Positions 14,191 through 60,099 of a stretch of DNA of 64,000 nucleotides are shown here, piece after piece. Source of the stretch: Azolla caroliniana. Its lineage: Eukaryota; Plantae; Polypodiophyta. How positions within the stretch are numbered: position 1 is the stretch's first letter; each line of letters opens with the position of its first letter. Position numbers and translations under genes: made by a program. The stretch is from positions 20,522,001 to 20,586,000 of the forward strand of contig JBHGNT010000009.1 of assembly GCA_043228905.1 (NCBI GenBank). The letters run 5' to 3'. A model generated the notes under the pieces. The model ran no database searches and was not told the origin of the DNA. It worked only from the letters and a program-made list of their open reading frames with translations.

Positions 14191-14344
14191 TTCGCTTGGT
14201 TAACATTAAGCATTGCGGAGATTGAGCCGCTACAAGGCAAGCATAATCACCGTGAGTCTCACGGCTTACGATCACCCCACGGGTCACGAAACGACCGTTG
14301 GCGCCAAAAAGTTTGAATTTCCCACGCAAAGTTCATCGAAAGAA

Positions 14345-14665: not shown

Positions 14666-14689
14666 CTATAAAAGCTTGACCAGAAAACA

Positions 14690-39424: not shown

Positions 39425-41742
39425 TAATCGATATCATGATCTCACATCAATACCCCTCTAGACGTATGAGATGAGGTTCAAGATCAGGTTACTATGGTAA
39501 CACAGAGGTGTTTTAAAAACCATGGGGGTGACAAATGAATGCCTTTCCCTGATCTCTATATCGATTTTTTTCATGGCGGCTCCCCGAGGCTCAACCATGT
39601 ATGTTCGCGTCATGAATAGTTTATACACGAAAAAAATGTTAACAATAAACTATGTTTCTGTGCCCACGTATGTGGTTTCGGCTCTTTAAGTCCTATTACG
39701 AGGACCCCGAAGTGCACTTAGACCTAAAGTCTAAACATGTATTATAGTCATATGTATCAACGATGTTGTATGGTGTTGGTCATATTTGAACTCGAGACCT
39801 CGAGGACAAATACATTAAACACTTGAGCCAACCAAGTAGATTGCGCGTCTTGAATGTTTAATGTTTGAGGCGTATTCGAGATATGCGAGGCATTTGCCCC
39901 TATATGTTTTTTTTAAAAGAAACATATAGGTCAAGTGGCCTTATTTCTCCCTCATTTATTACCCACTATGGTTGTACGCTACCTACCCTCAAGCCTCGTA
40001 AGTACAATGGCATATGCCAAAGTGTAACCTAATGGTCAAGCCGAATGAGCCCTTGTGTCTTCGTAGGCTCATGTGGCCCATCACATGGTCACGTCATTAC
40101 GAATGCCACTCGTAAGAACGAGCTCATGGTGGCATCGTATCCATGTAACGAGGGGAGATGTTGGATACGTGTGTCATTAGAGCGACCCTACTTGATGTGG
40201 ATCAAGCCCGACGTATTCAACATCATTTTGGCTATACGAGGTTCGTTACGTAACGAAATATCAAAGTGACCAACGGGAATTTCAACAATAAAAATTGTTG
40301 ATAAAAGGGATGGTGACAACGCCATTCTCACAAAAATGTGAGGACGGCCACCAAAATCCTCTCCCCAAGTAGGAAAACATTTGATATGAATCACGTAATC
40401 TAAAATATACACATATGTCCATTTATCACATATATACGATCAGAGACGTATATAAGTGACCACATATGCGTATACTAAATGAATCGTTTTTTTTATATAG
40501 CCAACAATGATGTATTCGGGATACGTAATCGAGGCATATACCTCTACGCACACGAAACATCCGAAAATAAGGTTAAGCGTAATTCGCAATTGAGGTATTG
40601 ACCTCTTACGCATAGTAAATCCAACGCATATCATTTCGAACGAATCGAGGTGTTGACCTCGTACGCGAACGTAACATATGTTCGTGAACGTAATACGCAA
40701 TTGAGGTAGTAACCTCGTACGCATACGACACTCATCACATATGATTTATATGTCAAACGAGGTATTGACCTCGTGGACATATGTAAACGTTTAAGATAAC
40801 CAATTAAATACCACGTCAACATCATTGAATATATGAAAAAAAAACTACATATTAAGTATACACATGTATAGAAGGGAGAAGAAAAATTAGATAAAAAATT
40901 AAGGAAAATTTACCGAAGTTCTTTCGCTAATCCTTGTCTGCATGAAGGTGACCGCACAACGATCAATCGCCATCCCACGTTGTCGGGGTTGCTACGCCTT
41001 TGCGTGCAGAAAGGAGGAGGGACCACGGGGGTCTTGGACCGAAGAGCAAGAGAGAGCGGAGTAAGAGAGAGACCCGATTACACAGAACCGAAGATTGCAC
41101 AGGGACACGGCCCAACAAACAGAGATCACAAACAAACGTCGACACAGATGGACGCAACAACGAAAGATATGTACTTATGAATGCAAGAAAATAACAGACC
41201 AAAGTATTACAACCCACGGTGGGGCACGGAATAGATACTAACGAGAACGGACGGGGCGGCGAACAGATGCCGACCCCTGTATGTCGCGACGCACAGAAAG
41301 GGGAACAGGTCGGAGGTGCGGCAGGACGCACTCGGGGCGTTCCACGGAACAGCGCAAGCCTCCTCGAAACCTGCACAGGTACGCGATGGAGCAGAAGACA
41401 GAGAAAGCAGGAGTGAGAGAGAAGCTCCGGAGTCGGTTTGGCAGCACTTCGTCCTCTCCGCGCGAGATCCCCTTTTCTATCCTTCCTCTTCCCTTTTATA
41501 GCCCGTCAAGAGGCCGTTTGGCATTAACTGCATACCAACCGAATCTGCCCACCTAGGATCCTCGTATGTACCTACTTCGTTCCTAGGTACTTCTTGGCGC
41601 GCGTGTGTGTAGAGCCGTTTCCCACGCCTTGTTCCTCCGATTCCTCTTGTGGGCTGTTTTCTTCACGACATCCGCCCCCACCTAACCGCGCATCCACCGG
41701 TATGCGCCAAATTAAGTTGGCACGGAGAAAACCGGCCCGCCT

Positions 41743-44700
41743 TTACTCTTCGCCTGCCGGCCCTTCCTCGGCCTCGGATCGGTCGTCGCTGTTGTCCAGG
41801 AGAATCGGGTCGGGTTCGTCGTCGTGCCGCTTCTTGAAAGCTTTGATCCTCTTCCCGGCCACGGGTATCGCTATTCTCGTACCGTCGAGTTCCGCCAGAT
41901 GATACGTCCCGTTGTCGTTGGCGCTCTGTACCGTGTACGGCCCGAACCATCTCTGTGCGAACTTCCGCGTTGCTCGGTGCTGGTTGTCGAGGCTGCTGTC
42001 GTAGACGAGCACCCAGTCACCTTCGTCGATTTTCTTCGGTCGTAGCCGGTGCGTTCGGTCGAACCGGGCTTTGTTCTTTGTCCTCGCCACCCGGAGCTTC
42101 TCCGTAGCCAGTTCCACGTCCTCCGGTCTCCGCTCGAGCTGTCGTATACGCGCGGCCAACAACTCCTCCCGGCTCATCTCGTCCCTCCAGTCGACCGTTG
42201 CCCACGAGGAGATCGTCCGTTCAACCGGCATGATCGGCTTCTGGCCGAACATGAGCTCTGTCGGCATGTACCCGGTTACCGAACTGTGCGTGGTCCGGTC
42301 TGCCCACAAAGCATAAGGTAGGAGCCGCGGCCAGTTACCGACTTGGCCTCCGCATGCCCGAACCAGCGCTTTAACGATCGGCCCGTGTCCGCGCTCTACC
42401 TTTCCATTCGCCTCCGGGTTGTACGCAGTGGTGAGCGAGAGTTTGACTCCCAGCCGATCGAACAGCTCCGCAGCTTCCTCGGTGTCCAACTCCCCTCGGT
42501 CAGCCACGATCTTCCCGACGCACCCGTACCGGCATACCACGTCCTCGATCAGGAACCGACACACGGCCGCGGTCGTCTTGTTCTGAAGGGCTCGGCCTTC
42601 CACCTGGTTCGTCAGGTCTTCCCGTGCTAGGACCAGATACCGCATCTGTCCTACCCCCATCGGCATCGTCACCAGATCTACCATCCATTTGAAGTGGATA
42701 GTCGGAGGGTACGTAGGGCGAAGCCCGTCCCGGTGTCGGACTATCGAGTGCATCTGACAACTCTCGCAAGTTGACACGAACCGATGCACGTCCCGGTACA
42801 ATCCCGGCCACCAGTACTTCCCCTTCAGCTTCTCGAACGTGGCCCAAGTTCCACGGTGTCCGGCCCAAGGGCTGTCGTGGTAGGCCGTCAGCAGCTCCTC
42901 CTGTTCTTCCTTCATCGCCACCACCCGGAGCGGGATGCCGTTCCTCTTCTTCGGGTGCTTCCACAAATGCCCATCTCGGAGAAAGAATCGATATGCTTTC
43001 TTCCGGATCCGGTTGGCCTCGTCCTTCGTCCATGACGCATCGGGCGTCATTGTCTTCAAGAACCCGCCGATCTGCAGCCACTCCCCGTCGTACTTGCTCG
43101 CGTCGAACTCGTTAAGCGCCGGAGTGTTCATCCCGCCGGTCGTTATGTATGCTGCCTCGAAGAAATCCACGCCGACTTCTTCGTCTTCCGAAACCATGCC
43201 GCCCTCGTCGTCGAACCTCGCCCTCGAAAGCATGTCGGCCATGGCGTTGTCTTTTCCGGAAATGTGTCGTATTTCCGGGTCCAGGGACTTGATGTACGCT
43301 ATCCACCTGAGCATAGCCAGGTCCGGAGTCGCGCATCCGGAAACCATACCGAGAATCGGCAGGCAATCCGTCTCGATGATCACTTCTGTCCCTATCAGGT
43401 AGTCTTTGTCGGCCTTAACCGCCGAAACAATACCCCAGAGTTCGCGTTTAACCTGGGCGTATCCTCGCTGCCGTTCACTGAGGACTTTCGCGCCGAATCG
43501 GATCGGAAACCGATTGCCGTCCTCGTCTTCCTGGTTCACAACCCATCCGATCCCGGTCGGACTGGTATCCACCGTTATGAATACCGGGGTACCCTTCCCG
43601 TATACCGCCTTCCGGAGTGCCGGTGCCGCTGCAAGGGCCTCTTTCAGCTTCCGGACCGATTCCGCGTGCTCGTCCAGCCATTCGAACCTTCGCCCCCTTT
43701 TCAGCAACCCGTACAGTGGCTCCGCGACGTGTGCGTAATGCGGGACCCATATGTGGTAGAACGCGCATGCCCCCAGGAATCTCCGTACTTCCGTGACCGA
43801 GCTGCAGTCGGGCTTCATCGCGGAGATGGCTTCTACCTTTGCCGGAGACGGTTTCCGGCCATATGGTCCGCACAGGTGTCCGACCACCATGATTTCCGAC
43901 TGCCCGAAGGCCGACTTCTCCCCGGAGAAGGTGAGTCTCGCATCCTCTAGCCTTTGCAGCACCTTCTCGCAGTCGTCGATGTGCGTCGCCACGAATCGCC
44001 GGCATCCGTCCGGCCCGATCGTCTCGTCCTTTTCTTCCACCGGGCATCCCTTGATCGGGATGTCATCCAGAAACGGCATGGTGATGTCCGGGATACAGTC
44101 CCTCAGAACCTTGTTCATCGCATTCACCATGTGGGCCACCGAGTTGGTCCCTCCTTGCGGCAGTGTACACATCCGAACTAGGCCGAGGGGAGTTCGCATC
44201 GTCGTAATGTCTCTGCTATCCACGGCTAGCTGGAACTGGTCGTACCCTGAGTATAGATCCCCGACCGAGTAAATTGACCTTCCGGCGAAGGCCTCCGCGA
44301 ACTCGTCTATGGTCGGTCCGATCCCTGCGTTCCGAATGGTCACTCGATTGACCGGCTGCAGGTCCTGGATGAAGCGCAACGAACCGTTTTTCTTCGGTAC
44401 GGTAAACCATCGATTCGAGTATGGGGCGCTCGACGGCTCGAGAATTCCCATATCAACTTTCTGCCTCAGCAGCTCCATCAACTTCGGGATGTGAGCTCTC
44501 GGAACCGGGATTGGCTTGAGATTCCATGGTACATGCGGTACCGTGAATATCACCATCGGCTCCACGATCGTCGGGTCAACGCACCCGATTTCCTCCGGCG
44601 AGAATGCGAAGGCTTTCCCGTGCCTTCCGAGCATCCCCCGAAACCGGTCTTCCTCCGCCGGCAGTAGGAACCCGCCCCCACCGATTTTGAGCTCTCGGAG

Positions 44701-45240
44701 CGTCTCGTCGGTGAAGGTGTGTCCTATGCAGGCCGGATCTCGTAGACTAGGGTCCGATGCAACCCCTTTGATTCTCGACGCGCTGTCCTCCGGTAGGGGT
44801 GCCGCGACTGGCCTTACCTTCCGGTCCACAGTCTTGTACTTGGTGCCTACGTGGGCCGTCCGAACTGACTCGAGCCCTCGACCGAAGTCCGCGATGACTC
44901 CGTACATCCCCTCGGAACACACCGGTATCGTCCGGTCTTCGTTAAGGCCTTCTTCGACTACCTTCCCCAGCATTCCCAAGGTGTCGTCGAATGAGACCGC
45001 CTCCACGGCTCCGTTGATTTCCTCGTCAGGGCCGAGAACTCCGCACGCTCGAAGTCTCCCCTCCGCCTTTGTCTTCTCTCGGCCGCCGATGCCGACTATC
45101 GTACACGCTCCGCTGTCGGAGAACAAAAATTCCCTACCTATGGTACAAGGTTTCTTTGGTTTTATCGTACAGGTGTGGGGGTTTCCCGGGGTGTCCGGAC
45201 TGTCGCGGCCCCACGCCTTGGCAGCCCTCTCTAAAAATCC
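41743..45240 (-). CDS. pol: B Pol (RT-RNase H-INT), in the -1 frame relative to gag
   Basis: 1127-aa ORF, open upstream to the slippery site; FLDD, TVDTS, HHCC and DDE-type integrase, WFGPY. Confidence 0.94.
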   Translation of the reverse strand, partial: GFLERAAKAWGRDSPDTPGNPHTCTIKPKKPCTIGREFLFSDSGACTIVGIGGREKTKAEGRLRACGVLGPDEEINGAVEAVSFDDTLGMLGKVVEEGLNEDRTIPVCSEGMYGVIADFGRGLESVRTAHVGTKYKTVDRKVRPVAAPLPEDSASRIKGVASDPSLRDPACIGHTFTDETLRELKIGGGGFLLPAEEDRFRGMLGRHGKAFAFSPEEIGCVDPTIVEPMVIFTVPHVPWNLKPIPVPRAHIPKLMELLRQKVDMGILEPSSAPYSNRWFTVPKKNGSLRFIQDLQPVNRVTIRNAGIGPTIDEFAEAFAGRSIYSVGDLYSGYDQFQLAVDSRDITTMRTPLGLVRMCTLPQGGTNSVAHMVNAMNKVLRDCIPDITMPFLDDIPIKGCPVEEKDETIGPDGCRRFVATHIDDCEKVLQRLEDARLTFSGEKSAFGQSEIMVVGHLCGPYGRKPSPAKVEAISAMKPDCSSVTEVRRFLGACAFYHIWVPHYAHVAEPLYGLLKRGRRFEWLDEHAESVRKLKEALAAAPALRKAVYGKGTPVFITVDTSPTGIGWVVNQEDEDGNRFPIRFGAKVLSERQRGYAQVKRELWGIVSAVKADKDYLIGTEVIIETDCLPILGMVSGCATPDLAMLRWIAYIKSLDPEIRHISGKDNAMADMLSRARFDDEGGMVSEDEEVGVDFFEAAYITTGGMNTPALNEFDASKYDGEWLQIGGFLKTMTPDASWTKDEANRIRKKAYRFFLRDGHLWKHPKKRNGIPLRVVAMKEEQEELLTAYHDSPWAGHRGTWATFEKLKGKYWWPGLYRDVHRFVSTCESCQMHSIVRHRDGLRPTYPPTIHFKWMVDLVTMPMGVGQMRYLVLAREDLTNQVEGRALQNKTTAAVCRFLIEDVVCRYGCVGKIVADRGELDTEEAAELFDRLGVKLSLTTAYNPEANGKVERGHGPIVKALVRACGGQVGNWPRLLPYALWADRTTHSSVTGYMPTELMFGQKPIMPVERTISSWATVDWRDEMSREELLAARIRQLERRPEDVELATEKLRVARTKNKARFDRTHRLRPKKIDEGDWVLVYDSSLDNQHRATRKFAQRWFGPYTVQSANDNGTYHLAELDGTRIAIPVAGKRIKAFKKRHDDEPDPILLDNSDDRSEAEEGPAGEE
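45175..45240 (-). promoter_or_regulatory. Predicted -1 ribosomal frameshift signal of B (equivalent in A at 32176-32241)
   Basis: G GAT TTT immediately before the gag TAG, 6-nt spacer, stems GG(A/G)CTG/CAGTCC and GTGGGG/CCCCAC. Confidence 0.8.
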
Positions 45241-47384
45241 TCTCGGTTATCGGAACCGAGGGAGTCGCGGTTACGCTCGTGGTTCGGCCTAACCGTCAAA
45301 AACTGGACCGAATGGCGCCCGTCCTGGCTCTTGACCCGCGCATAGGCCGAACCATTGTCCAGCACCTTGGTCTCCATTCGCGCCGCCGTGATGTACGGCT
45401 CTCCCAGAATGACCGGATGCGAAGACGTCTCCTGCACGAAGAAGTGCTGGTCAATCTCGACGTCGCCGATCTTGACTCGCACATTCGGACAGGCCCCGTG
45501 CAGTTCCTCGGTGGCGCGCGTTGCTGCCCTTATTTTCCACCCGTGCTTGGTGTTGATCGGCCATTTGCCCTTCTTATAGAAGTCCATGGACATCAAATTG
45601 ATCTCCGATCCGTGGTCCACCAAAGCTATCACCGGTTCCTGGACATCGCCGATCTTCACCGGGGTTTCCGTGGTCGCTCGGGCCCAGTGCGGTCTCGAAT
45701 AGTGGCTTTCCGCCCACTCGTCTCCCAGCGCCATGTCGTCTAGGTGCGTCGTCCGCACTTCCACCAGTCTTTCCGGTTCTGTCTCCGTTGACAGCCTCTT
45801 CCGTTTCACCAAGTCCACGATGGAGTCGTGGAACTCCTTCTTGGCGATTCCCAGCACTTCCCGTAGCGACAGCTCCACCTTGCTGTCGAGGATCCGTTCC
45901 TCCAGGACCTTTCGTAAGTCCGTGGTTCTTTCTATCTCCGTCCCCAGACGGTACCCGCCCTTCTGGGGTTTATCTTGCGTACCGGCCCCGCCGGCTCCGT
46001 CCCGTCGTGGCCCGGACCGGGTCTCGTATCGTTGTGAGGGCCCGGTCGTCCCGGGTTTCCCCACCCGCTTCTCTTCTACCAGAGCCTCGTAGTTCCAGCA
46101 AGCGGCTTCCACGAAGCCCGTCTTTTCCTCGACCGGGTCGCTCCACCCGGTCATCTCCTGTACCCGTTTCTCCGCACGGTCCGATTCCTCCCCTTTAAGC
46201 CTTGCACCGGCAAGGCCTTCCAGCATCGTCGGCCAGAATCCGGCTTTGCTTTCCCTTCGGGCCTCGCCGCCCCCGACTCGAATGCCGGCCGACGCCGAGT
46301 AGTGAACGGTTTCCGCGTGTCGGGCCGCCGCCTCTTCCATCAACCTTTTCATACCACCCTTTCCGTCGTTTCGGCTCAGGGCCCTTCGGGTGTCGCTGGC
46401 ATGCACCCGTCCTTCCCACAGGTACACCACCCTGTTCCTCAGCGCCTCCGCGAAGTCGCCGCAGTCCTTCCGAATGTGGCCGACTTCATCGCACCACATG
46501 CACCTGTTTCCTGCCGCCGGCCGTCGGTCACGAGCCGGTTCGCCTCCTTCCCTTCGGGCCTGCGCGATTTGGAGGTCCTTTATCGCCTTCGTCAATTCCT
46601 CCAGCGCCGCTCCTCCGGTTGAGCCTGTGACTACGCCGGTCGAAGCCGAACCGGTTTCCAACCACTCTCCGGTCCCTTCCTTTCGCACCCGTGGCGCTGG
46701 TTCGAACTTCCTTGCTGCGACCGAGCCCGACCCGGTCGCACCGTCATCCGCCCATTCTCGCCGTTTGTCGAAACGGCCACAGACCTTCCTGACAGCCGCC
46801 CAGTCGGTAGTGAGCCCGTCTTCGGTTTCTAGCAGGGCGCCCACGTGACTCCGATCCCTCTCGTCAACCGATTTGACGAACAGCAGGACCCGGCTTGTAT
46901 CCAGGACCATCCTGTCAAGCGCCGAAAGGCGTGCGAAGTTCTCCTCGAACTCCCGGAGGAGTGCCGAAGCGTTTCTTCCCTTCCCCGGGGACTCCACCCA
47001 TTCCATAAAGCTTCGCTTCGAAAGCCGGAGCGCGTCGTCCAGTCCGTATTTTTCCAGGAGCCGACCTTCGAACTCCTCCCAGGTACGGCTCTCCGTCCGC
47101 ACCTCGAGCACCTCCGCATGGATGCTCGGCATCGCTACTCGGGGAAATCCGGCAAGACGCCTTTCTTCCGGAATGTCCCGCATCAGCATCTCTGCACCGT
47201 AGGACGCCAAATACTTCGTGGCATCCTTCCCATCGAACCGGCCGATCGTGCCGACGACCGCCTCAATAGCTCTGTCGAGGGCACCGGTGCTCTCGCGCGC
47301 GTTTACAATCCGATCCACGGCCGAAGCCATGGCCTCTGCGAGATCCGACCCCCTCATTTCCTGCTCTTCTGCCGCCTCTTTCAC
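45231..47384 (-). CDS. gag: B Gag-protease (717 aa from GTG; first ATG at 47357)
   Basis: CX2CX4HX4C knuckle; ALVDHGSEIN and VILGEPY retropepsin-like motifs. Confidence 0.92.
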   Translation of the reverse strand: MKEAAEEQEMRGSDLAEAMASAVDRIVNARESTGALDRAIEAVVGTIGRFDGKDATKYLASYGAEMLMRDIPEERRLAGFPRVAMPSIHAEVLEVRTESRTWEEFEGRLLEKYGLDDALRLSKRSFMEWVESPGKGRNASALLREFEENFARLSALDRMVLDTSRVLLFVKSVDERDRSHVGALLETEDGLTTDWAAVRKVCGRFDKRREWADDGATGSGSVAARKFEPAPRVRKEGTGEWLETGSASTGVVTGSTGGAALEELTKAIKDLQIAQARREGGEPARDRRPAAGNRCMWCDEVGHIRKDCGDFAEALRNRVVYLWEGRVHASDTRRALSRNDGKGGMKRLMEEAAARHAETVHYSASAGIRVGGGEARRESKAGFWPTMLEGLAGARLKGEESDRAEKRVQEMTGWSDPVEEKTGFVEAACWNYEALVEEKRVGKPGTTGPSQRYETRSGPRRDGAGGAGTQDKPQKGGYRLGTEIERTTDLRKVLEERILDSKVELSLREVLGIAKKEFHDSIVDLVKRKRLSTETEPERLVEVRTTHLDDMALGDEWAESHYSRPHWARATTETPVKIGDVQEPVIALVDHGSEINLMSMDFYKKGKWPINTKHGWKIRAATRATEELHGACPNVRVKIGDVEIDQHFFVQETSSHPVILGEPYITAARMETKVLDNGSAYARVKSQDGRHSVQFLTVRPNHERNRDSLGSDNREDF

Positions 47385-47397
47385 GTCGGGTTCACCA
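47380..47397 (-). promoter_or_regulatory. tRNA-Trp primer binding site of B (same 18-mer in A 34381-34398 and F 52578-52595)
   Basis: TGGTGAACCCGACGTGAA is complementary to the plant cytosolic tRNA-Trp 3' end UUCACGUCGGGUUCACCA (recalled sequence). Confidence 0.85.
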
Positions 47398-49838
47398 AGA
47401 TGTCGGGGTTGCTACGCCTTTGCGTGCAGAAAGGAGGAGGGACCACGGGGGTCTTGGACCGAAGAGCAAGAGAGAGCGGAGTAAGAGAGAGACCCGATTA
47501 CACAGAACCGAAGATTGCACAGGGACACGGCCCAACAAACAGAGATCACAAACAAACGTCGACACAGATGGACGCAACAACGAAAGATATGTACTTATGA
47601 ATGCAAGAAAATAACAGACCAAAGTATTACAACCCACGGTGGGGCACGGAATAGATACTAACGAGAACGGACGGGGCGGCGAACAGATGCCGACCCCTGT
47701 ATGTCGCGACGCACAGAAAGGGGAACAGGTCGGAGGTGCGGCAGGACGCACTCGGGGCGTTCCACGGAACAGCGCAAGCCTCCTCGAAACCTGCACAGGT
47801 ACGCGATGGAGCAGAAGACAGAGAAAGCAGGAGTGAGAGAGAAGCTCCGGAGTCGGTTTGGCAGCACTTCGTCCTCTCCGCGCGAGATCCCCTTTTCTAT
47901 CCTTCCTCTTCCCTTTTATAGCCCGTCAAGAGGCCGTTTGGCATTAACTGCATACCAACCGAATCTGCCCACCTAGGATCCTCGTATGTACCTACTTCGT
48001 TCCTAGGTACTTCTTGGCGCGCGTGTGTGTAGAGCCGTTTCCCACGCCTTGTTCCTCCGATTCCTCTTGTGGGCTGTTTTCTTCACGACAACGTGAAGAC
48101 AAAAAGAAAACCAAAAGAAACGTTAGTACATATGCTCTGATACCAAATATTAGAGATTAGGTACTAAAGTAAGCATAAAATAAGGATATATCAATGATAG
48201 ATCTAGAAAGAATAGAGAGAAAAGAGAGAAAGAAGGGTGCCGATCCACCCGACCACCCCCGAGCGAAGGGATCGAGACGGACTCGAGCCTCGATCGGCGT
48301 CCCATACCACCGCCTTGGCGTCGAGTCGTACCTGGACGATAGCGCGCTTGCTACAAGAGTGGTTCCACTCACGGACAGAGTCTCGACGTAGTCAATGCAT
48401 GATGAAATGAGGATAGCTAGGCCTCTTATTTATAGTAATTCTCAAGGCCCCCAGCCATGTTCACACTTGGCCTCATGGGTTGTCTCAATCCCGAGGATTA
48501 AAAGTAATCCTCCCCTTCTTTAGACTCTTTGTTTAACCCTCACACTTATCCACGTGTATAGAATACTACGACAATTCTCACCACGGGATATTATATGGTC
48601 ATGCCCGTAACAACGGGGGTCTTGAACCGAAGAGCAAGCGAGGGTGGAAAGAGAGAGGACCGGTTACGCAGGACCGGGGATGCATAGGGACACGGCCCTA
48701 CAACACAGAGAACGCGAATAGACGCCGACACAGGTAGACGCAAACAAATGAATATATATATATATAAATGAGCAAATGTCTGATCAAGAAGCTACAACCC
48801 GCGATGGGGCACAGGATGGTTACAACCGAACAGGCCGGCGAACAGATGCCGATGCCTGTTCGCTGCGTCGCACAAAAGGGACCAGGTCGGAGGTGCTGCC
48901 GGAAGCACTCGGGCGTTCCTCGAAACAGCGCGAGCCTCCTCGAAAGCCTGCACAGGAAAGCTATGGAAAAGAAGAAGGAGAACAGAGAGAGAAGCGCCCA
49001 GGATCGGTCCGACAACACTTCGTCCTCTCTGCGCGCGATCCTCTGTTCCTTCCCGTCCTTTTCCTTTTATCGGTCAAGAAGGAGCCGTTTCGTATTAAAT
49101 TCCCACCTACCGTATCTAACCACTTCGATCCTCCTAGGTACCTAATTCGCCTCTATGTACAACTTGGCGCGCACGCGCGTGAAGAGCCGGTTCCCACGTC
49201 TTGGTGCCCCAATTCCACCCTTGGACGGTTTTCTTCACGACAACGTTCCCTTCAATTGTCCCTCGTTCCCGTGGTTATTATTTTTATTATTTTATTATTT
49301 TATTAATTTAATTTATTTTTAATGTCGACCCCCTTTCCTCTCTCACACCATTCCTTCCCTCCACCCCCTTTCCCCATCTCTCTGTTAGGCACCCTTGGAT
49401 CGCCACCTCCGACGTTCCTGCTCCTACTCCATCGGTCACTTGCCCCGGCCGCCGGCTCGTCTCCTCCATACCCTGCTTTCCCACGCCTTAGGTAGGCCCT
49501 CCCTCACTCCTCTCGTTTTGCCATACTTGCATTTCGCCCCTCTGGGGCGGTCGTGGCCGCCGCCACATCGTTTTGCATTTCTCCCATGGCGGCCATAACC
49601 GCCGCCCCGTTGCTGCCCTCTCCTCCCGTCACCGGCCCATTACGAGCCACAACCACGTCGCCCCGTTGCCGTGGCGACCATAACCGTCGCCCCGTCGCCG
49701 CCTCCCCTCCCCATGGCGCTGCCCGTTAACGAGACCACACGGTCTCGACGTTTTTCGTTCCCCCCGAGGCGGCCGTTTCAGTAACCCCGTCCTTTTCAAA
49801 CCCCCACGTCACTGGCCGTTCACAGAACACTCCGCCTC

Positions 49839-50219
49839 GTGGTTCGAGGAGCCCAACCCCTTGAACCACACAGTGTTCGAGGAGCTCCACTCCTTGAACC
49901 ACACGCAACCCAACTCCTCGAACCACACAGTGTTCGAGGAGCTCCACTCCTTGAACCATACGTAGCCCAACTCCTCGAACCACACAATGTTCGAGGAGCC
50001 CAACCCCTCGAACCACACAATATTCGAGGAGCTCCACTCCTTGAACCACACGCAGCCCAACTCCTCGAACCACATAGTGTTCGAGGAGCTCCACTCCTTG
50101 AACCACACGCAACCCAACTCCTCGAACCACACAATGTTCGAGGAGCCCAACCCCTTGAACCACACGCAACCCAACTCCTTGAACCACACGTTGTTCGAGG
50201 AGCCCAACTCCTCGAACAC
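49839..50219. repeat. Tandem array of alternating inverted motifs in the G 3' region
   Basis: Repeated GTTCGAGGAG and CTCCT(C/T)GAACCACAC modules. Confidence 0.92.
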
Positions 50220-51895
50220 GTAACTCTTAGTTTTTGAGTTACTACGTAGTTATTTGACCTACTTGATTAGGACTCCACTTCCCGATCTGTTTAAAAAAAC
50301 AAAGAAAAAAAAAGAAAAAGAAAAAGAAAAGAGGAATCTATTAAAACTACCCGAACTTGTTGATTCATCACCAAAATTAACTATACTAATATTTTTCCTC
50401 GCAGGTTGCAAACGATGACGTCTCCCCAATTCATCAAACTCCTCCACGCATACTACCCCGACGCAGGGTGCGGTTCCTTAGTCATTCCAGCGGTGTTCAA
50501 CAACACCTGATGTACTTACCGGGTCCCCACGGCTGGCACGCAACTCAAGTACCTCGAACCCAACGTTGTCGAGTTGTTACGCTCTATGCGTGCGAAAGAG
50601 GCGGGACCGCGGGGGCCTTGAACCAAGGAGCGTGAGAAAGAAGAGAGAGAGAGAGAGAGAGAGAGCACAATTTGTAGAAACACAGAGGGCGAAAGAGAGA
50701 GAGAGAGAGAGCAAAGTCTTAATTACGATTACAACCAGCAAGCCGACAACGTACCCAACTCAGGCGAACACACACGCCACACGATGCGCCGTAAGCACAC
50801 GGGCTGTCCACGAAGCAGCGGCAACTCAGACCGAAATCTTGTAGAGAATGACAAATGATGGAGGAGAGAGCTCGGTCCCAGTCCGGCAGCACCTCGTCCT
50901 CGCTCTCCAAAACGCTATCTCTATACCTCACTTCTCCCTCTCTTTTATAGCCCAAGGAGGGAGGCCGTTACCACTTGTTACATCATGTTTATTCCCTGTC
51001 CTTTTGGACAGGGATACGCCTTGATTTCCTCCCTACCGAATGCGTATTGCATCGGATTTCGCCTCAGGCGTCTTGTACCTACCTACGTACTATACCACAA
51101 AACTTGTGCCCACGTGTAAGGGCCAGTTTACGCATGTTATACCCGGTTTCCGCCTAGGGACGGTTTTCTCCACGACATCCGCCCCCACCAAACTGTGCAT
51201 CCACCGGTATGCGCCAAAATTAGACTCCTGCCGGAGAAGACCGGCCCACATTTATCCTTCGTCTTCCGGGTCGGCATCCGTTCTGAGCCGGTCGTTGTCG
51301 CTATCTAGGTCGTCTGGGTCCGATTCAGCCTCATGCCGCTTTTTGAAGGCTTTGATCCTTTTCCCCGCCACCGGTACCTCCATCCTTGTCCCGTCGAGCT
51401 CTGTGAGATGGTAGGTCCCATTGTCGTTGGCGCTCGTCACCGCATAAGGCCCGAACCACCTTCTTGCAAACTTCCGCGTTGCCCGGTGCTAGTTGTCGAG
51501 GCTGCTGTCATACACTAGGACCCAGTCGCCTTCCTCGACCTTCTTCGGCCTCAATCGGTGAGTCCGGTCGAACCATCCTTTGTTCTTTACCCTCGCCACC
51601 CGTAGCTTCTCCGCGGCTTGGTCCACGTCCTCCGGTCTTCGTTCCAGCTGACAAATCTGTGCCGCTAACAGCTCCTCCCGGCTCATCTCGTTGTTCCAGT
51701 CCACCGTGGCCCATGAGGAGATTGTCTGCTCCGTTGGCATGATCGGCTTCTGCCCGTACATTAGCTCTGTCGGCATGAACCCGGTTACCGAACTGTGCGT
51801 AGTTTGGTCCGCCCACAACGCATAGGGTAAGAGCCGCAACCAGTTCCCGACATGGCCTCCACACGACCGTACCAACGCTTTGACGATCGGCCCGT

Positions 51896-54800
51896 TGTCG
51901 TGAAGATTTTCGTCCATAGGCGGAAAACCGAGCGAAGTAAGCAAACCCGCGATGTGCAACGTTGCACATCAAGATGTTGTATTTCTATTTGTCGATAGTG
52001 GTAAGTGTGGTGCTAGAAATGCACCTTAGGATTTGTAAAGTGTAAAGGTGATGTGCTTTTGCGCGCACATCCACGTGAGAGAGAGAGATAGGTACATAGT
52101 AGTTCGTGTAGAGGTGGGAGTTAAGACCCATCCTTCCCACCTCCCCTAAAATCAAGGGAAATATCCCCATTGATTGAAAGGGGATATTTTGTAGCACCTT
52201 TATGTAACGGTCTTCCCTCCTTGTGCTATAAAGGGAGAGGAAGAGCACCATTGTGGGGGTTGCCTTATTTTGAGTGTGAGTGAGGTATACCATTTCGTTT
52301 AGGGTTCCTTAGTTAGGGTTTCTTTTCTTCTTCGTCGGATTAGGGTTTTCGGGTTTATCATAGTCGTTCGGTGCGGCCTACGCGGCCGCCATTTTGTAAT
52401 CGGTTTCGTTTCTAATATATCTTGTTGAGCATTTGGCCTCCATCTTCCTCTTGTTCATTCTTCCTCTTCTTGTGCTAAGCTCCATTTCGAAGTCCTATTC
52501 CTTCTCCCCTTCTCCTTAGTCCGAGACCCCCGTGGTTCCGCCCTTCTCCACGCACGCGCGTAACAACGCGACATCTTTGGTGAACCCGACGTGAAGGGCG
52601 GCAAGGGAGAAAGAGATGGAGGAAGGCTTCGACTTCGAGGAGATGATGACAAAGATCTTGATGGACGCCGGACGGAAGAGGGCGAGGCGAGAGGCGGCTC
52701 AACAAGCGGTCGAAAGGGTGGTCCGTCTAGTCGGCCGGTTCGATGGGAAGGAGGTCCCAAATTTTTTGAGAGCCTACGATGCGGAAATGACGGGGATGGG
52801 CGTGGACGAAGCGACGAGGCTAGAGTTCTTTCGTCGAGCGGCGGCCGCATCAAAGTACGAGGAGGTCAAGGAGCTCCAAGAAGCTCACGAATCGTGGGAG
52901 TCCTTTGAAGGGGCTCTAATGGAGGCATACGGGTGCGCGGAATCGGAGGTAAGAGGTCGGCGAGAGTTCGATCGGTGGGTGGCGTCGGCGAGGCGCCATC
53001 GGAGCGCAATGGAGGCATTCCGAGAGTTCGAGCGTCGTTTCTCTCAACTCTCGGAGTGGGAACGAAGATCGGTGGGGGCGGACAAAGTCCTCCTATTTTT
53101 GAAGACGGTCCATCATGAGGAGAGGATGGACATCACGTTCGAGCTTCAAGACGATTATGGGGCGCATGGTCTCACCGAGGAGTGGCCCGAAGTGGAATGG
53201 GTGTGTCGGCAACATGAGGCGAGGCGGTCGGCCACAACACGGCCCGCGAGCGGGGGAGAAGAGAGAGCGACGACCAACTACGCCATGCCGCCGGACGAGA
53301 GCTCATCGCGAACCGGTTTGGAGGGGCTCGACCTACAAGCGCTAATACGGGAGGCGTGCGGGCTCGTAATAACGAAAATCGAAGCCGAAGAATGGCTTAT
53401 TGCGGGGTCGGGCCCGAGCGGATCGGAGGACGCGGAGGAAGGAGCTTCCTCACACATGGAGGACGGGGCCTATGCGGAGGCCGAAAGAGAATGGTACATC
53501 GGTACCACGGGAGAGGGTGCGGAGCGAGCCGCCCTCTCGACATGGGGGGAACGAACGACCGAGGACGAGGTCGGGGACGGTGAGGCGGCGATCGCCGATT
53601 CGAGCGGACATGGCGGATTCGGGACATGGTGGCCCGAATCATCGAGTACGGAGGAGACAAGCGGCGGTACCGCAACCTTCCACGCACCGGTTCAAGAGAC
53701 CCCGGCGGCCGGCCCGAGCGCCCGCGTGAGACCGAGGGAAAAGCACGGTGGCGGCGGCAAGGCGGGCAACCGAGACAACGGTAAGGAGACCGCGGAAGAG
53801 GCGGCGGCAAGCATAACCGATGCTTGCATATACGGAGGCGGGGTAGCCACGGACAACGACGTCCGAGCGGAGGTGGCTACGGACATTACATCGACGAGCG
53901 GCGGTCCCGCGACCTTACACGCGTCATTCCTAGAGATCACGGCGGCCGGCCCGAGTGCCCGCGTAAGACCTATGGTGAAAGGCGGTGGCGGTGGCAAGGC
54001 GGGCGACCACGGCGTCGACACGAGAGAAGGTGCGGAGCAAGCGACCGTCTCATCTCGGGGAAAAAGAACGGCCATGGACGAGGCCGATATCTACGGAGCG
54101 ATGGACGCCACTTCGAGAGTGGGCGGAAGTTTCGGGACGCGGTTGCCCGAAACGTTCTACGAGGATTTCGCGAGCATACTCGAGGCTTGCGAAATGGAGG
54201 AGGAAGACGAAACGAGCGATGGTGTCGCGACCTTCCACACACCGGCCCTAGAGGCTTCGGCGGTCGGCCCGAGTGCCGGCACGAGACTTAGAGCTACGGG
54301 TGGTGGCGGCGGCAAGGCGGACAACCGAGATGAGGACGAGACCGGCGAAGAAGAGGCGGCGGCAAGCATACTCGATGCTTGCGAAACCGAAGACGGGGTA
54401 GCCACGGACGACGATGTCCGAATGGAGGTGGCTACGGACGAGAGGAGTGGTGGTGTCGCGACCTTCCACACACCGGTCCTAGAGACTCCGGCACCCGGCC
54501 CGAGAGCCGGCGAGAGGCCTAGAGTGACGGACGGTGGCGGCGGCAAGGCGGGCAACCGAAACGACGACGACATGGGAGAGGGTGCGGAGCGAGCAACCCT
54601 CTCGTCTTGCGGCGAATGGACGGCCAAGGATGAGGCCGGTGACTACAAAGCGGAGAGCGCCACTTCGAAAGTGGGCGGAAGATTCGGGGCACGGCGGCCC
54701 AAAACATCGAGCGGAGAGGAGGCGAGAGGTGGTGCCGCGACCTTCCACGCACCGGCCCTAGAGGCTTCGGCGGTCGGCCCGAGTGCCGGCACGAGACCTA

Positions 54801-57548
54801 GAATGACGGGCGGTGGCGGCGGCAAGGCGGGCAAACAAGATGACGCGGAGAACGGCGAAGAAGAGGTGGTGGCAAGCATACTAGAGGCTTACGGAATCGG
54901 AGATGGGGGAGCCGCGGACAACGACGTCCGAACGAAAGCGGCTACGGAGACAACAAGCGGCGGTGCCGGGTCCTTACCCACACCAATCCTAGAGGCTCCA
55001 ATGGCCGGCCCGAGTGCCGGCATGAGGCTTAGTGTGACGGGAGGTGACGGCGGCAAGGCGGGCAACGGAAACGAGAAGGAAGATTGGAGCGGACGGAGGC
55101 AAGACCCCTTGACACCGGGGCCGGAGACTTCGGCGGTTGTGCTCGAATGCCAACGTGAGACCGGAGAGATGGGCGGTGACCGTGAGGAGGTGAGGCCCGG
55201 AGAGAGCGCATACGAAGACGAGTATGCGGGGCCCGGAATGGGCGTATACGGTGGGTCCGACGGAGAGGACCGGAGCGGAAACGAGGAGAGAGTCGGGAAC
55301 CGACCCGACCGGAATACGGCACGGAAGAAGAAGAGAGTAAGGGCCGGCGAACCGGGCCCAAACCGAAGGAAGCCGGCGAGACCGATTGGCCGGTTACGAT
55401 TACGACTACGGTTACGGTTACGGTGGGAGCCGGTAAGCGCGAGATGGAGGCTAACCGGGCACGAAGACCATGGTTCGGGGGAAAAACGGAAACAAACGAG
55501 ACCCTCCATACCCACTCTAGAGACTACGGCGGTTGCGGATCAACATAAGACCGGAGAGACGGCGGGTGGCGGCGAGGAGTCGGAGGCCGAAGCGTACGAG
55601 GTTACCGGAACGGATATCCGGTACGAGATGGTGGACGGGTGGGTCCAAGACGGCGAGCCCGTGTCGGGACGGGCTACGGCGACAAAGGAGGAGAAGACCG
55701 ACACGGAGGTCGGGTCTACGGCGGAAGAGCGAGACGAGATGCATGCAATACGGCCGATGGAGGGCCAAGACACAAGCATGCCTACGAAGGAGCCACATCG
55801 AGCGACCGAAGATGACGGTCGGATCACGCCTTCGAGAGGCGAATACGAGGAGGAAGGCGGCGACGAAAAGACCTGGCACGATGCTAGGGAAGATTGGTGG
55901 GAAGAGGTGGACTACGGAGAGGCTAAGACCGGCGGCCACGAAGATAAGGCCCGAGAGGGATCCTCCACACCGGCTATAGAGACTCCGGCGGTCGGCGCGA
56001 GTGCCGACGTGAGACCAAGAGTGGCAGACGGTGGCGGCGAGGGGACGAAGGCCACAACGGATGAAGGCACCGAGAGAGGCATACGGGAGGTCGCGGAGAA
56101 CGAAGATGTATGCGCCCAAAAGAACGAACACGACATCACGAAGGATGTGTGCGGTCGAGCGGGCCAAGAGGGCCAAGAGGGTGTTCCTCCGAGCGAAACG
56201 GAGGTCGGGGAAGAAAGGTACCTTTCCGAAAGGGTACGCGAAGAGGAGCGGAATGCGAAACGTGCAATGCGTCCGCATGAGGGCCAAGCAACGAGCACGG
56301 GAACGATGGTATGCTCTACGGCGAGAGAGCATGGCAAGCAAAGGGAAGGCGAAAAATGCGTGATGGGGTCATCGAAGGACCGAAGCACGAGCACGCATTC
56401 GGAAAGCCTACGGAAGGCAAGCGCGGAGCGAGAAGAGTCGGCACGACGAGGTGCGCAGCACGAAAAAGGCGGATCCGGAGGATATGCGAGGCGGACAAAG
56501 GGTCGGCAACGGCGTTCGGGAGGACCGATCGGGGAAGAAAGCGCGGGCATCGGAAACGGCGGTCCGGATGAAGACGGTGGTTCGAGGAAACACGGTGGAC
56601 GTGGCGGATCGGGTGGAGGCAACGACTCGGCGAACGTCGTCAAGTGTGGCGGATCGGATGGAGCCGACGGTTCGAGACCATTCGGCGGAGATGGTGGGCC
56701 GGAAGGCGACGGTGGTTCGTGTGGACGGGGTGGACTTGCTCGAAGTGGAAGACTAAGCCGGGCAAGCCCACGAGGATGTCAAGGGCTCGGTTGGCCGCCT
56801 TGGCCGAAAATCTCGCGTTTTGTTCCCCTTTTGGCACATACCGGTGGATGTGCGGTTAGGTGGGGGCGGATGTCGTGAAGATTTTCGTCCATAGGCGGAA
56901 AACCGAGCGAAGTAAGCAAACCCGCGATGTGCAACGTTGCACATCAAGATGTTGTATTTCTATTTGTCGATAGTGGTAAGTGTGGTGCTAGAAATGCACC
57001 TTAGGATTTGTAAAGTGTAAAGGTGATGTGCTTTTGCGCGCACATCCACGTGAGAGAGAGAGATAGGTACATAGTAGTTCGTGTAGAGGTGGGAGTTAAG
57101 ACCCATCCTTCCCACCTCCCCTAAAATCAAGGGAAATATCCCCATTGATTGAAAGGGGATATTTTGTAGCACCTTTATGTAACGGTCTTCCCTCCTTGTG
57201 CTATAAAGGGAGAGGAAGAGCACCATTGTGGGGGTTGCCTTATTTTGAGTGTGAGTGAGGTATACCATTTCGTTTAGGGTTCCTTAGTTAGGGTTTCTTT
57301 TCTTCTTCGTCGGATTAGGGTTTTCGGGTTTATCATAGTCGTTCGGTGCGGCCTACGCGGCCGCCATTTTGTAATCGGTTTCGTTTCTAATATATCTTGT
57401 TGAGCATTTGGCCTCCATCTTCCTCTTGTTCATTCTTCCTCTTCTTGTGCTAAGCTCCATTTCGAAGTCCTATTCCTTCTCCCCTTCTCCTTAGTCCGAG
57501 ACCCCCGTGGTTCCGCCCTTCTCCACGCACGCGCGTAACAACGCGACA
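51896..57548 (+). mobile_element. Element F: non-autonomous Gag-only LTR element, 5653 bp. LTRs 51896-52573 and 56871-57548 (678 bp); TSD CCGT.
   Basis: LTRs identical by eye; CCGT at 51892-51895 and 57549-57552; Trp PBS; PPT GGTTAGGTGGGGGCGGA as in A and B; no pol motifs. Confidence 0.95.
52616..56878 (+). CDS. 1420-aa protein: Gag N-terminal domain fused to an acidic Gly/Glu/Ala-rich repetitive tail
   Basis: AVERVVRLVGRFDGKEVPNFLRAYDAEM aligns with B Gag AIEAVVGTIGRFDGKDATKYLASYGAEM; FREFERRFSQLS aligns with LREFEENFARLS; about 7 ATFH...GPSA...GGGGKAG repeats. Confidence 0.88.
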   Translation: MEEGFDFEEMMTKILMDAGRKRARREAAQQAVERVVRLVGRFDGKEVPNFLRAYDAEMTGMGVDEATRLEFFRRAAAASKYEEVKELQEAHESWESFEGALMEAYGCAESEVRGRREFDRWVASARRHRSAMEAFREFERRFSQLSEWERRSVGADKVLLFLKTVHHEERMDITFELQDDYGAHGLTEEWPEVEWVCRQHEARRSATTRPASGGEERATTNYAMPPDESSSRTGLEGLDLQALIREACGLVITKIEAEEWLIAGSGPSGSEDAEEGASSHMEDGAYAEAEREWYIGTTGEGAERAALSTWGERTTEDEVGDGEAAIADSSGHGGFGTWWPESSSTEETSGGTATFHAPVQETPAAGPSARVRPREKHGGGGKAGNRDNGKETAEEAAASITDACIYGGGVATDNDVRAEVATDITSTSGGPATLHASFLEITAAGPSARVRPMVKGGGGGKAGDHGVDTREGAEQATVSSRGKRTAMDEADIYGAMDATSRVGGSFGTRLPETFYEDFASILEACEMEEEDETSDGVATFHTPALEASAVGPSAGTRLRATGGGGGKADNRDEDETGEEEAAASILDACETEDGVATDDDVRMEVATDERSGGVATFHTPVLETPAPGPRAGERPRVTDGGGGKAGNRNDDDMGEGAERATLSSCGEWTAKDEAGDYKAESATSKVGGRFGARRPKTSSGEEARGGAATFHAPALEASAVGPSAGTRPRMTGGGGGKAGKQDDAENGEEEVVASILEAYGIGDGGAADNDVRTKAATETTSGGAGSLPTPILEAPMAGPSAGMRLSVTGGDGGKAGNGNEKEDWSGRRQDPLTPGPETSAVVLECQRETGEMGGDREEVRPGESAYEDEYAGPGMGVYGGSDGEDRSGNEERVGNRPDRNTARKKKRVRAGEPGPNRRKPARPIGRLRLRLRLRLRWEPVSARWRLTGHEDHGSGEKRKQTRPSIPTLETTAVADQHKTGETAGGGEESEAEAYEVTGTDIRYEMVDGWVQDGEPVSGRATATKEEKTDTEVGSTAEERDEMHAIRPMEGQDTSMPTKEPHRATEDDGRITPSRGEYEEEGGDEKTWHDAREDWWEEVDYGEAKTGGHEDKAREGSSTPAIETPAVGASADVRPRVADGGGEGTKATTDEGTERGIREVAENEDVCAQKNEHDITKDVCGRAGQEGQEGVPPSETEVGEERYLSERVREEERNAKRAMRPHEGQATSTGTMVCSTAREHGKQREGEKCVMGSSKDRSTSTHSESLRKASAEREESARRGAQHEKGGSGGYARRTKGRQRRSGGPIGEESAGIGNGGPDEDGGSRKHGGRGGSGGGNDSANVVKCGGSDGADGSRPFGGDGGPEGDGGSCGRGGLARSGRLSRASPRGCQGLGWPPWPKISRFVPLLAHTGGCAVRWGRMS

Positions 57549-60099
57549 CCGTGCCCGCGCTCCACCTTTCTGTTAGCCTCCGGATTGTACGCCGTGGTGA
57601 GCGAGAGTTTAATTCCTAGTCGGTCAAACAACTCTTCCGCCTCTTGCACGTCCAATTCCCCGCGGTCGGCCACGATGTTACCTACGCACCCGTACCGGCA
57701 TACCACTTCTTCGATCAGAAATCGGCACACGGCCACAGTCATTTTGCTCTGCAACGCTCGGCCTTGCACCTAGTTCGTCAGGTCCTCTCGAGCCATCACC
57801 AGATACCGCATCTGCCCTACCCCCATCAACATCATCACCAGATCCACCATCCACTTGAAGTGGACGGTCAGAGGGTAGGTCAGGTGGAGCTCGTCCCTAT
57901 GTCGGACTATGGAGTGCACCTGACAGCTTTCGCAAGTTGTTAAGAACCGATGCACGTCCTGATATAATCCCGGCCATGAGTACTTCCCCTTTAGCCTAGG
58001 GACTCTCGTGGTATGCCGTCAACAACTCTTCATGTTCCTCTTTCTTCGCCACCACTTGGAGCGGGATGCCGTCTCTCTTCTTCGGGTGCTTCCATATGCT
58101 GCCGTGCCGTAGAAAGAATCAATACGCTTTCTTCCGAATCCGGTTGGCCTCTTCCTTCGTCCACGCCGCATCCGGTGTCATTGTCTTCAGGAACCCGCTG
58201 ATCTGGAGCCACTCCCCGTCGTACTTGCTTTTGTCGAATTCGTTAAGCGTTGGGGTGCTCCCCTTCCCTGTTGTTACGTTGGCTGACCCGAAGAAATCCT
58301 CGCCGACTTCCTCGTTATCCGAAACCATGCCATCCTCGTCACTGAACCGCACCCTTGAAAGCATATCGGCCATGGCATTATCTTTCCCGGAGATGTGTTG
58401 TATCTCCAGGTTCAGGGACTTGATGAACGCGATCCACCTGAGCATCGCCAAGTCTGGAGTCGTGCATCTAGAGACCATACCTAGAATCGGTAGGTAGTCC
58501 CTCTCGATGATCACTTCCGTCACGATCAGATAGTCCTTGTCGGCCTTGATTTCCGAAACGACACCCCACAGCTTGCGCTTAACTTGGGTATATCCTCGCT
58601 GCCGCTCGCTCAATACCTTCGCCCCAAGCCGTATCGGGAACCGTACGCGGTCCTTGTCCTCCTGACTGATCACCCACCCGATCCCAGTCGAGCTCGTGTC
58701 CACCGTCACATAGATGGGGACTTTCTTGCCGTAAACCGCTTTCTGGAGAGCCGGTGCCGCAACAAGCGCCTCCTTCAGCCTCCGGACCAACTCCGTGTGC
58801 TCCGTCCTCCACTCAAACCTACGCCCTTTCTTCAATAGCCCGTAGAGCGGTTCTGCAACATGTGCGTAGTGCGGAATCCAGATGTGGTAGAACGCGCACG
58901 CACCCAAGAACCTGCGGATCTCCGTAACCGACCCACAATCGTCCTTCATCACGGAGATGGCTTCTACCTTTGTCAGGGACGGTTTCCGGCCATAGGGCCC
59001 GCACAGGTGTCCGACTACTAGTATCTCCGACTGTCCGAATGCTGATTTTTCTCCGAGGAGGGTGAGCCGCGCGCTCTCGAGTCTTTGTAGCACCTTCTCA
59101 CAGTCGCGGATGTGATCCGTCACGAACCTCCGGCAACCGTTGGGCCTGACCGACTCGTCCTTGTCCTCCACAGTACATCCTTTGATCGGGATGTCGTCTA
59201 GAAACGACATGGTGATGTCCGGGATGCAGTCCCTCAACACCTTGTTCATCGCATTCACCATGTGCGCCACCGAGTTCGTTCCTCCTTGCGGCAGGGTACA
59301 CATCCGAACTAGGCCGAGAGGAGTCCGCATCGTCGTGACATCCCTGCTCTCTACGGCTAGCTGGAACTGATCGTAGCCTAAGTACAGGTCCCCGACCGAG
59401 TAGATCGACCTCCCTGCGAAGGCCTCCGCGAACTCATCGATGGTCGGTCCGATACCTGCGTTTCGAATGGTCACCTTGTTGACCGGCTGTAGGTTCTGTA
59501 TGAAGCGCAGTGTGCCGTAAACCACCAATTCGAATATGGGGCACTCGACGGCTCGAGGATGCCCATCTCCACCTTCAGTTTCAGCAGCTCCATCAGCTTC
59601 GGGATGTGAGCTCTGGGTACCGGAATCGGTTTGAGACTCCATGACACATGCGGTACCGTGAAGATCACCATTGGTTCCACAACCTTCGGGCCTATGCACC
59701 CAATCTCCTCCGGTGAGAATGCGAAAGCCTTCCCGTGCCTCCCGAGCATTCTCCTAAACCTCCGGTATCGGAGAACCAAAATTTTCTACCTATGGTACAA
59801 GTGTTTTTGCCTACAGTACATTTGTGGGGGGGTCGAAGCATGCTACGGTGTACCAACTTTTGGCCAAAAATTTAGTACTAAATCGAAGAAGAAAATAAAC
59901 ATTAAAAATTGTAAATAAGTTTCAAAAAACAAAAAACAAATTCATTACGTCACACTCGAATGCACAAAGATATTGTACGTCACACTCGAAATGTCCCTAG
60001 GCCATATTTAATACATTAATTGTTGCCCCAGTCTCCTAGGTAGAGTTGTACGAAAGCACACCTGGAGAAGGTATCCATTGTGACAGTTGGTCAGTCTCA

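Follow-up and report, generated by a model that had tools for sequence, protein, structure and literature searches.

A pol-less LTR retrotransposon of Azolla caroliniana combines a capsid domain with a long open tail and shares its cis signals with neighbouring candidate helpers

Why a retrotransposon without its own polymerase should keep a gene is a question that the papers on Gag-only elements of the TR-GAG type leave open. The same question is raised by element F, a 5,653 bp long LTR element at 51896-57548 of the 64-kb stretch of Azolla caroliniana DNA that was analysed (in the following the window). The family to which F belongs allows possible answers to be separated, as it has a constrained capsid, a tail selected for its reading frame and a conserved end motif that matches no known family.

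The features of F are collected in Table 1. The two LTRs (51896-52573 and 56871-57548) differ at none of their 678 positions, and both flanks carry the 4-bp target-site duplication (TSD) CCGT, which is of the NCGN type. F is inserted antisense into the integrase region of element C, which is older and 5′-truncated. The empty target was also found: the runs X8 and X16 have contigs in which 51891 is joined to 57549 over 4 shared letters, which corresponds to the uninterrupted target sequence. Identical LTRs and a TSD had been claimed by a model that read the letters alone (the sequence-only reading), and these data confirm both. One open reading frame (ORF) of 1420 aa at 52616-56878 fills the interior and has its stop codon at nt 6-8 of the 3′ LTR, as that reading had described. 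Its statement that zinc knuckle, protease, reverse transcriptase (RT), RNase H and integrase are absent held as well: no Pfam family was obtained for the F ORF at E ≤ 0.1, while the same search gave RT, RNase H and integrase in the elements A, B and C; tblastn, tblastx and HMM comparisons with the rest of the window provided no pol match, and no CCHC motif is present. F is a recently inserted, pol-less LTR retrotransposon. Leaf and plant metagenomes contain F-type sequence.

Table 1. Positions in the window of the parts of element F and of the candidate helper B.
Feature	Positions	Strand	Remarks
Left TSD CCGT	51892..51895	+	within integrase region of element C; empty-site joint in X8, X16
5′ LTR, 678 bp	51896..52573	+	TATA-like box at LTR nt 332; U5 end common to A, B, C
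Primer-binding site (PBS), 18 nt	52578..52595	+	same 18-mer in A and B
Capsid domain, aa 1-210	52616..53245	+	predicted two-lobe Ty3/Arc fold; dN/dS 0.39-0.57 vs L002
Linker without CCHC zinc knuckle	53246..53650	+	post-capsid helix predicted in relative P0018
Six acidic internal repeats	53651..55106	+	5/5 spacings multiples of 3; dN/dS ~1
Basic patch at about aa 851-960; the tail is otherwise again acidic and of low complexity	55107..56400	+	
Frameshifted end of the F copy	56401..56878	+	Gly/Arg-rich, ~158 aa, stop at LTR nt 6-8
Polypurine tract (PPT)	56859..56870	+	PPT and ~50-70 nt around it common to A, B, C
3′ LTR	56871..57548	+	same sequence as 5′ LTR
Right TSD CCGT	57549..57552	+	
Element B, candidate helper	40981..48090	-	7,110 bp; identical LTRs (0/690); ACGT TSD

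An element without pol depends on others for its movement, and the cis signals of F point to its neighbours. The PBS 18-mer, presumably a tRNA-Trp complement, is common to F, A and B; a literature search for this motif gave no match. The PPT-LTR junction is common to F, A, B and C. According to the sequence-only reading, the sharing comprised the PBS, the PPT and the LTR tips, while the LTR interiors differed. The former signals are indeed shared, but the sharing is wider than the tips: in U5 about 70-85 nt of F match A and B at 73%, and a 41-nt stretch of the TATA region in the F LTR (52204-52244) matches the C LTR (50933-50971) at 85% and not A or B. The promoter of F may be derived from the C branch. 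In the window all four elements of the group have 4-bp target flanks of the form NCGN, namely CCGT for F, ACGT on both sides of A and B, and ACGT at the one remaining flank of C. These signals occur in C too, a third candidate helper. With its identical LTRs B is as young as F, and its gag-protease ORF overlaps an ORF that encodes RT, RNase H and integrase. Since PBS, PPT, U5 and the NCGN TSD are shared, and since B is young with long gag and pol ORFs, mobilisation in trans, which had been proposed for the A/B family, is well supported. We regard it as very probable that F is a TR-GAG-like satellite moved by the A/B/C group.

The protein that F encodes starts with a capsid. Residues 27-204 match the Gag of B with 38% identity (E 7e-30); beyond this match the ORF has no similarity to A, B and C at DNA or protein level, and about 85% of it is unrelated to helper Gag. 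An AlphaFold2 model of the region (17-row alignment) reached a pLDDT of 89, with an N-lobe predicted at about aa 38-106 and a C-lobe at about aa 112-209. Foldseek gave no match for this model at E ≤ 0.001. Upon re-alignment the Arc N-lobe ranked first (Z 10.4, rmsd 1.6, 65 residues), followed by dArc1 (Z 10.3), the PEG10 C-lobe (Z 8.8, rmsd 2.4) and then Copia and Ty3 capsids, with best Z values over these structures of 7.5-10.4. By themselves such Z values are no more than modest for proteins made of helices, yet both the match to B Gag and the ESM Atlas, where neighbours of the F capsid are named retrotransposon gag (0.90), point the same way. From sequence match and predicted fold together, the N-terminus of F is a capsid of the Ty3/Arc type, and the earlier suggestion that the first ~200 aa are Gag-like finds support in both. 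Modelled pairing of the F capsid with the B capsid, for which alignments were not used, scored 0.21 against a mark of 0.34.

F is not alone in its design. A first database search returned five relatives among 2,004 candidates. The protein P0018 (618 aa, 48% identity to the F N-terminus) served as second query and provided 22 proteins among 7,996 candidates scored. About 25 database proteins have the same plan, i.e. a Ty3/Arc-type capsid, no zinc knuckle, an acidic and then basic tail and a Trp/Arg end. They come from collapsed metagenome assemblies, such that some may be composites, and they are called ORFs, such that open frames are over-sampled. A CCHC knuckle was found in none of the 20 relatives examined and not in F. 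The tails are 370-1,200 aa long; their first 60% is acidic in 18 of 19 proteins and their last 40% basic in 16 of 19 (for P0004 the beginning of the tail had been mis-set). The ~1200-aa tail of F had been described as acidic; it is not uniformly so, and in the family it turns basic and runs into the Trp/Arg end. Relatives in subfamilies with 31-50% identity keep the same frame and motifs. P0003-type proteins are Gly/Ala/Arg-rich and P0018-type proteins Lys/Asn/Ile-rich, suggesting branches with GC-rich and AT-rich DNA and perhaps different hosts or mutation regimes. A search for DNA of distant relatives found none in viral contigs and prokaryote genomes, and metagenome contigs gave three loci.

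For P0018 AlphaFold2 gave one post-capsid helix and a pLDDT under 50 from residue 294 on (shallow 18-row alignment), and the tail is thus predicted to be disordered after one helix. A folded domain within the tail was rejected on this model. Hidden pol domains were rejected as well, as none appeared with Pfam or when the remainder of the window was compared by blastn, tblastx, tblastn and the HMM of the family. Compared with autonomous-type Gags the tail scored 0.

The terminal Trp motif (IWWIGW..WFGWKEW...KW) is present in 14 of the 20 relatives examined and in all eight short hits. Its column identity of 0.54 is near that of the capsid C-lobe (0.59) and above that of the tail (0.37). A Gly column is invariant, two Trp columns are invariant among the rows having them, and IGW as well as FGW recur. 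The motif has no Pfam match, no usable ESM Atlas match and no PDB sequence match better than E 0.26, which in itself does not establish novelty. The motif DNA has no counterpart in A, B or C, and the RNA fold before the PPT is nothing unusual (z 0.2). For these reasons we lean towards a motif that is kept as protein rather than as a nucleic acid signal read by the helpers.

The family also varies at its capsid end. In a tree of 41 capsids, from which 8 near-copies, short rows and forms without N-lobe were left out, 11 of the 13 tail-bearing rows fall into one clade (98/100) apart from A and B. P0173 and P0180 constitute a second capsid group, but one common origin is not rejected (p-AU 0.20); capsid swapping is suggested by this grouping. 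In P0005, P0006 and P0185 the N-lobe is missing, such that only the first helix and the C-lobe of the capsid remain; most of the N-lobe is missing from P0177, too.

Which parts of the protein are held by selection was read from substitutions, gaps and stops. The capsid is under moderate purifying selection: between F and contig L002 its dN/dS is 0.50 (95% 0.32-0.79), with values of 0.39-0.57 over three transition weights. This constraint is much weaker than in the helpers, where the comparison of A and B yields 0.16. Between F and L002 no gap occurs in the 624 nt of the capsid, compared with 13 gaps (1 in frame) in 400 nt of the adjoining LTR. The capsid region of contig L003 is frameshifted, which shows that decayed family copies exist.

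The tail behaves differently at the level of the frame and at the level of the residues. Its 1,061 codons contain no stop, whereas the two other frames of the plus strand contain 21 and 28. The longest ORF in 400 Markov simulations had 527 codons, such that the open frame of F is beyond chance. All five spacings of the internal repeats and all three gaps between repeats are multiples of three. For one repeat pair with 125 differences ~3.8 stop-making changes would be expected and none was found (P 0.024). Among the joints listed in contigs, 12 of 12 and 10 of 12 are in frame, many of them mirroring internal repeats, while in the 3′ region two of four distinct net lengths are in frame. The residues drift: dN/dS between internal repeats is 1.0, 1.6 and 1.0, and between the window copy of F and contig L001 it is near neutral with 0.71 (95% 0.34-1.64). 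The idea that the large tail may be selected therefore stands for its frame and fails for most of its sequence, since dN/dS is about 1 yet stops are absent and duplications and variants are in frame. The charge pattern and the last ~25 residues are probably selected, too.

At the 3′ end the picture is less simple. Of the 106 variants in the last 695 nt, the 40 best-supported include only 4 that are synonymous in the family frame, where 9-11 are expected (P 0.004-0.02), a deficit that speaks against plain purifying selection in this part. That Trp codons show no changes is not significant (P 0.24-0.58). Selection on another frame at the 3′ end was considered and dismissed, as none of the other five frames has a significant excess of synonymous changes.

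The fusion in F had been taken to be intact, which proved wrong. Window F is 98.3% identical to the family contig L001 but lacks 22 nt near 56400, which shifts its frame; a second lesion, a stop in the family frame, lies near 56570. The last ~158 aa of F and the stop in the LTR are therefore derived. Relatives read the DNA of 56401..56878 in another frame, in which it encodes the Trp/Arg-rich basic end: P0003, P0005, P0006 and five of five full-length members of the P0003 cluster have this basic, Trp-rich other-frame end with a stop just before the PPT, while P0002 and P0004 end elsewhere. Family ORFs either stop near the PPT or continue into the LTR, and in other subfamilies (P0176, P0187, P0191-P0193) the read-through into the LTR occurs in the family frame. 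The lesion of F is rare, since the 22-nt deletion was not found at a level of at least 5% in four runs mapped to L001, among the joints listed, and a contig of run X18 shows a 22-letter gap against window F at the deletion site. As F has lost the Trp/Arg end yet carries identical LTRs, the motif would not be strictly needed in cis for the insertion of F, or else the deletion would have arisen during insertion.

F likely borrows RT and integrase from Phygy-like neighbours. To explain why a protein is kept we tentatively favour, with somewhat less than even confidence, that its capsid-plus-tail protein acts in cis by bringing its own RNA into helper particles. The basis of this model is that F has the PBS, PPT, U5 end and NCGN signature of the helpers and no pol, that the capsid is constrained, that the tail frame stays open as far as the PPT although its residues change, and that the family conserves the short end motif. 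The protein of a non-autonomous element would be kept by selection mainly if it favoured its own RNA. Folding of the capsid would come first, and it would enter the helper assembly site while the ribosome still ties the protein to its mRNA. The unstructured tail would be a tether that depends on frame and charge but not on residues, and RNA binding, the task of the lost zinc knuckle, would have passed to the basic, aromatic end. Translation up to the PPT would furthermore leave a 3′ UTR no longer than that of the helper, such that less nonsense-mediated decay (NMD) would occur.

Parts of this model have a precedent, and several observations count against it. Ty1 assembly sites are described as foci of RNA-ribosome-nascent-chain complexes, but Ty1 Gag shows no cis preference (PMC3945221), which makes this precedent only partial. 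NMD in plants is reported to act on 3′ UTRs over 300-350 nt (PMC4417159). Judged from the TATA position, the 3′ UTR of F would still contain several hundred nt of LTR, which counts against the step of decay avoidance. Further arguments against action in cis are that F moved without the Trp/Arg end, that its capsid constraint is so much weaker than that of the helpers (0.50 vs 0.16), that decayed copies such as L003 exist, and that the few synonymous changes among the best-supported 3′ variants are the opposite of ordinary purifying selection. If hitch-hiking in cis were true, it would show how a retrotransposon parasite gets packaged and may yield a new RNA-binding peptide. A more far-reaching version, which we consider fairly unlikely, would make the family an old satellite lineage with Gag as cis-acting boarding device: the capsid would serve as an "address" for different helpers, to be exchanged or trimmed down to its C-lobe, the disordered tether would be variable in length, and a new Trp/Arg RNA-binding (or Argonaute-binding) module would stand in for the zinc knuckle. 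Such a lineage would be the eukaryotic counterpart of capsid-hijacking phage satellites.

It is also conceivable, though unlikely, that the tail is nothing but a translation shield. F would then move in trans, the open tail would let ribosomes reach the PPT so that the RNA escapes NMD, the polypeptide would be idle and the Trp motif would be an RNA-level signal. A tail dN/dS of about 1, family ORFs that stop near the PPT or enter the LTR, and the scarcity of synonymous variants in the 3′ region are in line with such a shield. In addition, the frameshift of F landed in a frame that is also open to the LTR, with P 0.015-0.04 per frame at the stop density of the tail, a value weakened by the selection of F for study by its open ORF. 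The constraint on the capsid, the conserved order of charges and the retention of the long interior are left unexplained by a shield, and an RNA-level signal is at odds with motif DNA that is absent from the helpers and has no special structure. If the frame alone matters, F would plainly exemplify an ORF that is maintained to serve the RNA.

GW/WG motifs are known as Argonaute hooks, and Trp/Arg peptides as membrane-interface binders. The Trp/Arg end with its GW dipeptides might accordingly face the host, by binding Argonaute against silencing or by anchoring assembly to a membrane, while the capsid delivers it to retrotransposon RNA. The recurring IGW and FGW and the invariant Gly and Trp columns are in line with this, but each protein has only 1-3 GW, the database searches described above gave the motif no Pfam or ESM Atlas partner and no PDB hit better than the E value stated, and a diffusible suppressor would help cheaters equally and would be hard to keep by selection. 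We consider such an effector quite improbable.

Decidedly improbable is a poisoning of capsids, in which the protein would assemble together with the Gag of the helper and, like Ty1 p22/p18, block or degrade the resulting particles, to the gain of satellite or host. The reduced capsids of P0005, P0006, P0185 and P0177 would fit this function; Ty1 p18m, an Arc-like Gag fragment, is described as restricting by blocking assembly (PMC8458377), and a tail of 400-1,200 aa could hinder lattice closure. F depends on its helpers, however, and is itself abundant and young rather than a fixed host locus, and next to it the helpers B and A are still intact or of recent origin. Least credible is a neutral passenger, i.e. 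a decaying Gag ORF with a GC- and purine-rich tail open by composition and with cis signals alone of importance, since the near-neutral dN/dS of the tail and of window F vs L001, the frameshifted copies (window F, L003) and the preference of ORF databases for open frames are outweighed by the 21 and 28 stops in the other plus frames, by simulated ORFs of at most 527 codons, by a capsid dN/dS interval that excludes 1 and by the persistence of frame and motifs across subfamilies at 31-50% identity.

Natural variants of the family protein (N-lobe deleted, second capsid type, terminal motif lost) exist beside a young, apparently complete helper, and therefore cis preference, NMD avoidance and capsid interference are directly testable.

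Among known systems TR-GAGs come closest in operation. F resembles them by LTRs, PBS, PPT, TSD, a single Gag-derived ORF, the lack of pol and signs of recent movement in trans. The identical LTRs and the many variants in the runs may point to activity of F. TR-GAGs are described as being under 4 kb with a 5-bp TSD, and TR-GAG1 as encoding a 433-aa Gag with zinc finger and no internal duplication (PMC4350172, Chaparro et al. 2015); transposition of a TR-GAG has been shown in Arabidopsis (PMC8704663). In contrast, F is 5,653 bp long with a 4-bp TSD and, compared with TR-GAG1, has no zinc knuckle and a 1,200-aa tail built from repeats. The TR-GAG definition includes a Gag with capsid and nucleocapsid, whereas F has no CCHC. 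Relatives of F with 600-700-aa ORFs would be near or under 4 kb. The F capsid comes from its own clade (38% to B) and not from a helper by deletion. F thus works like a TR-GAG while being larger and without a full Gag, and it is not a simple helper deletion.

The 4-bp NCGN TSD of F, A, B and the 3′ flank of C is a feature of Phygy, a Ty3/gypsy non-chromovirus lineage, with which a tRNA-Trp complement in the PBS may also be shared, and B resembles Phygy further by a coding region that fills the interior and by the lack of a chromodomain (its pol ORF has no Chromo match in Pfam, unlike element E). Phygy is described as the only lineage with NCGN preference and as using mostly a tRNA-Trp primer (PMC6317226, Neumann et al. 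2019). Phygy is, however, defined on RT/RH/INT trees, while B is likened to it by TSD, chromodomain absence and, putatively, PBS, and F is without these domains; with 7,110 bp B is also below the 7,656-9,968 bp listed for Phygy (PMC6317226). Our literature searches found no Gag-only Phygy satellite.

TRIMs and LARDs, which are discussed in PMC13570524, are non-coding and keep only the cis signals of the helper. As non-autonomous LTR elements with helper cis signals they resemble F, whose interior differs in being a selected frame of 1420 codons with a capsid under purifying selection. The likeness to Ty1 p22/p18 (PMC8458377) lies in an Arc-like capsid fragment able to meet full Gag, some F relatives being C-lobe only. 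However, p22 is described as arising from a sub-genomic transcript of the autonomous element that it inhibits, whereas F and its relatives form a mobile lineage of their own, whose long tail is foreign. The literature searches, which extended to neither subscription papers nor repeat databases nor bioRxiv supplements, gave no Gag-only element carrying a tail of this type.

Several further observations concern the surroundings of F and the contigs. LTR elements are nested at 22561-49242: inside A (minus strand) lie a copia element (25670-31114), which has identical LTRs, and a gypsy element with chromodomain (34450-48612, 1507-aa ORF), and the latter in turn holds B. Several of the nested elements have LTRs that are 98.6-100% alike, which indicates recent activity. 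The gag-protease and pol ORFs of B overlap in different frames at 45231-45246, which suggests a programmed ribosomal frameshift. In run X8 the depth at the PPT-LTR junction (L001:4598-4644) is ~100-fold above that of the interior, such that very many different elements share this signal. At L002:844-911 an F-type LTR begins 48 nt inside a C-type LTR tip, after a CGCG-containing site, and is possibly another insertion of a satellite into a helper-type element. An ORF of 366 aa on the plus strand at 61342-62442 has no Pfam match at E ≤ 0.01; it begins with a short basic repeat, and its second half is likely coiled-coil. Tandem arrays of 57/33-nt and 52-nt units lie at 49842-50217 and 63264-63996, and others at 1-322 and 14291-14703.
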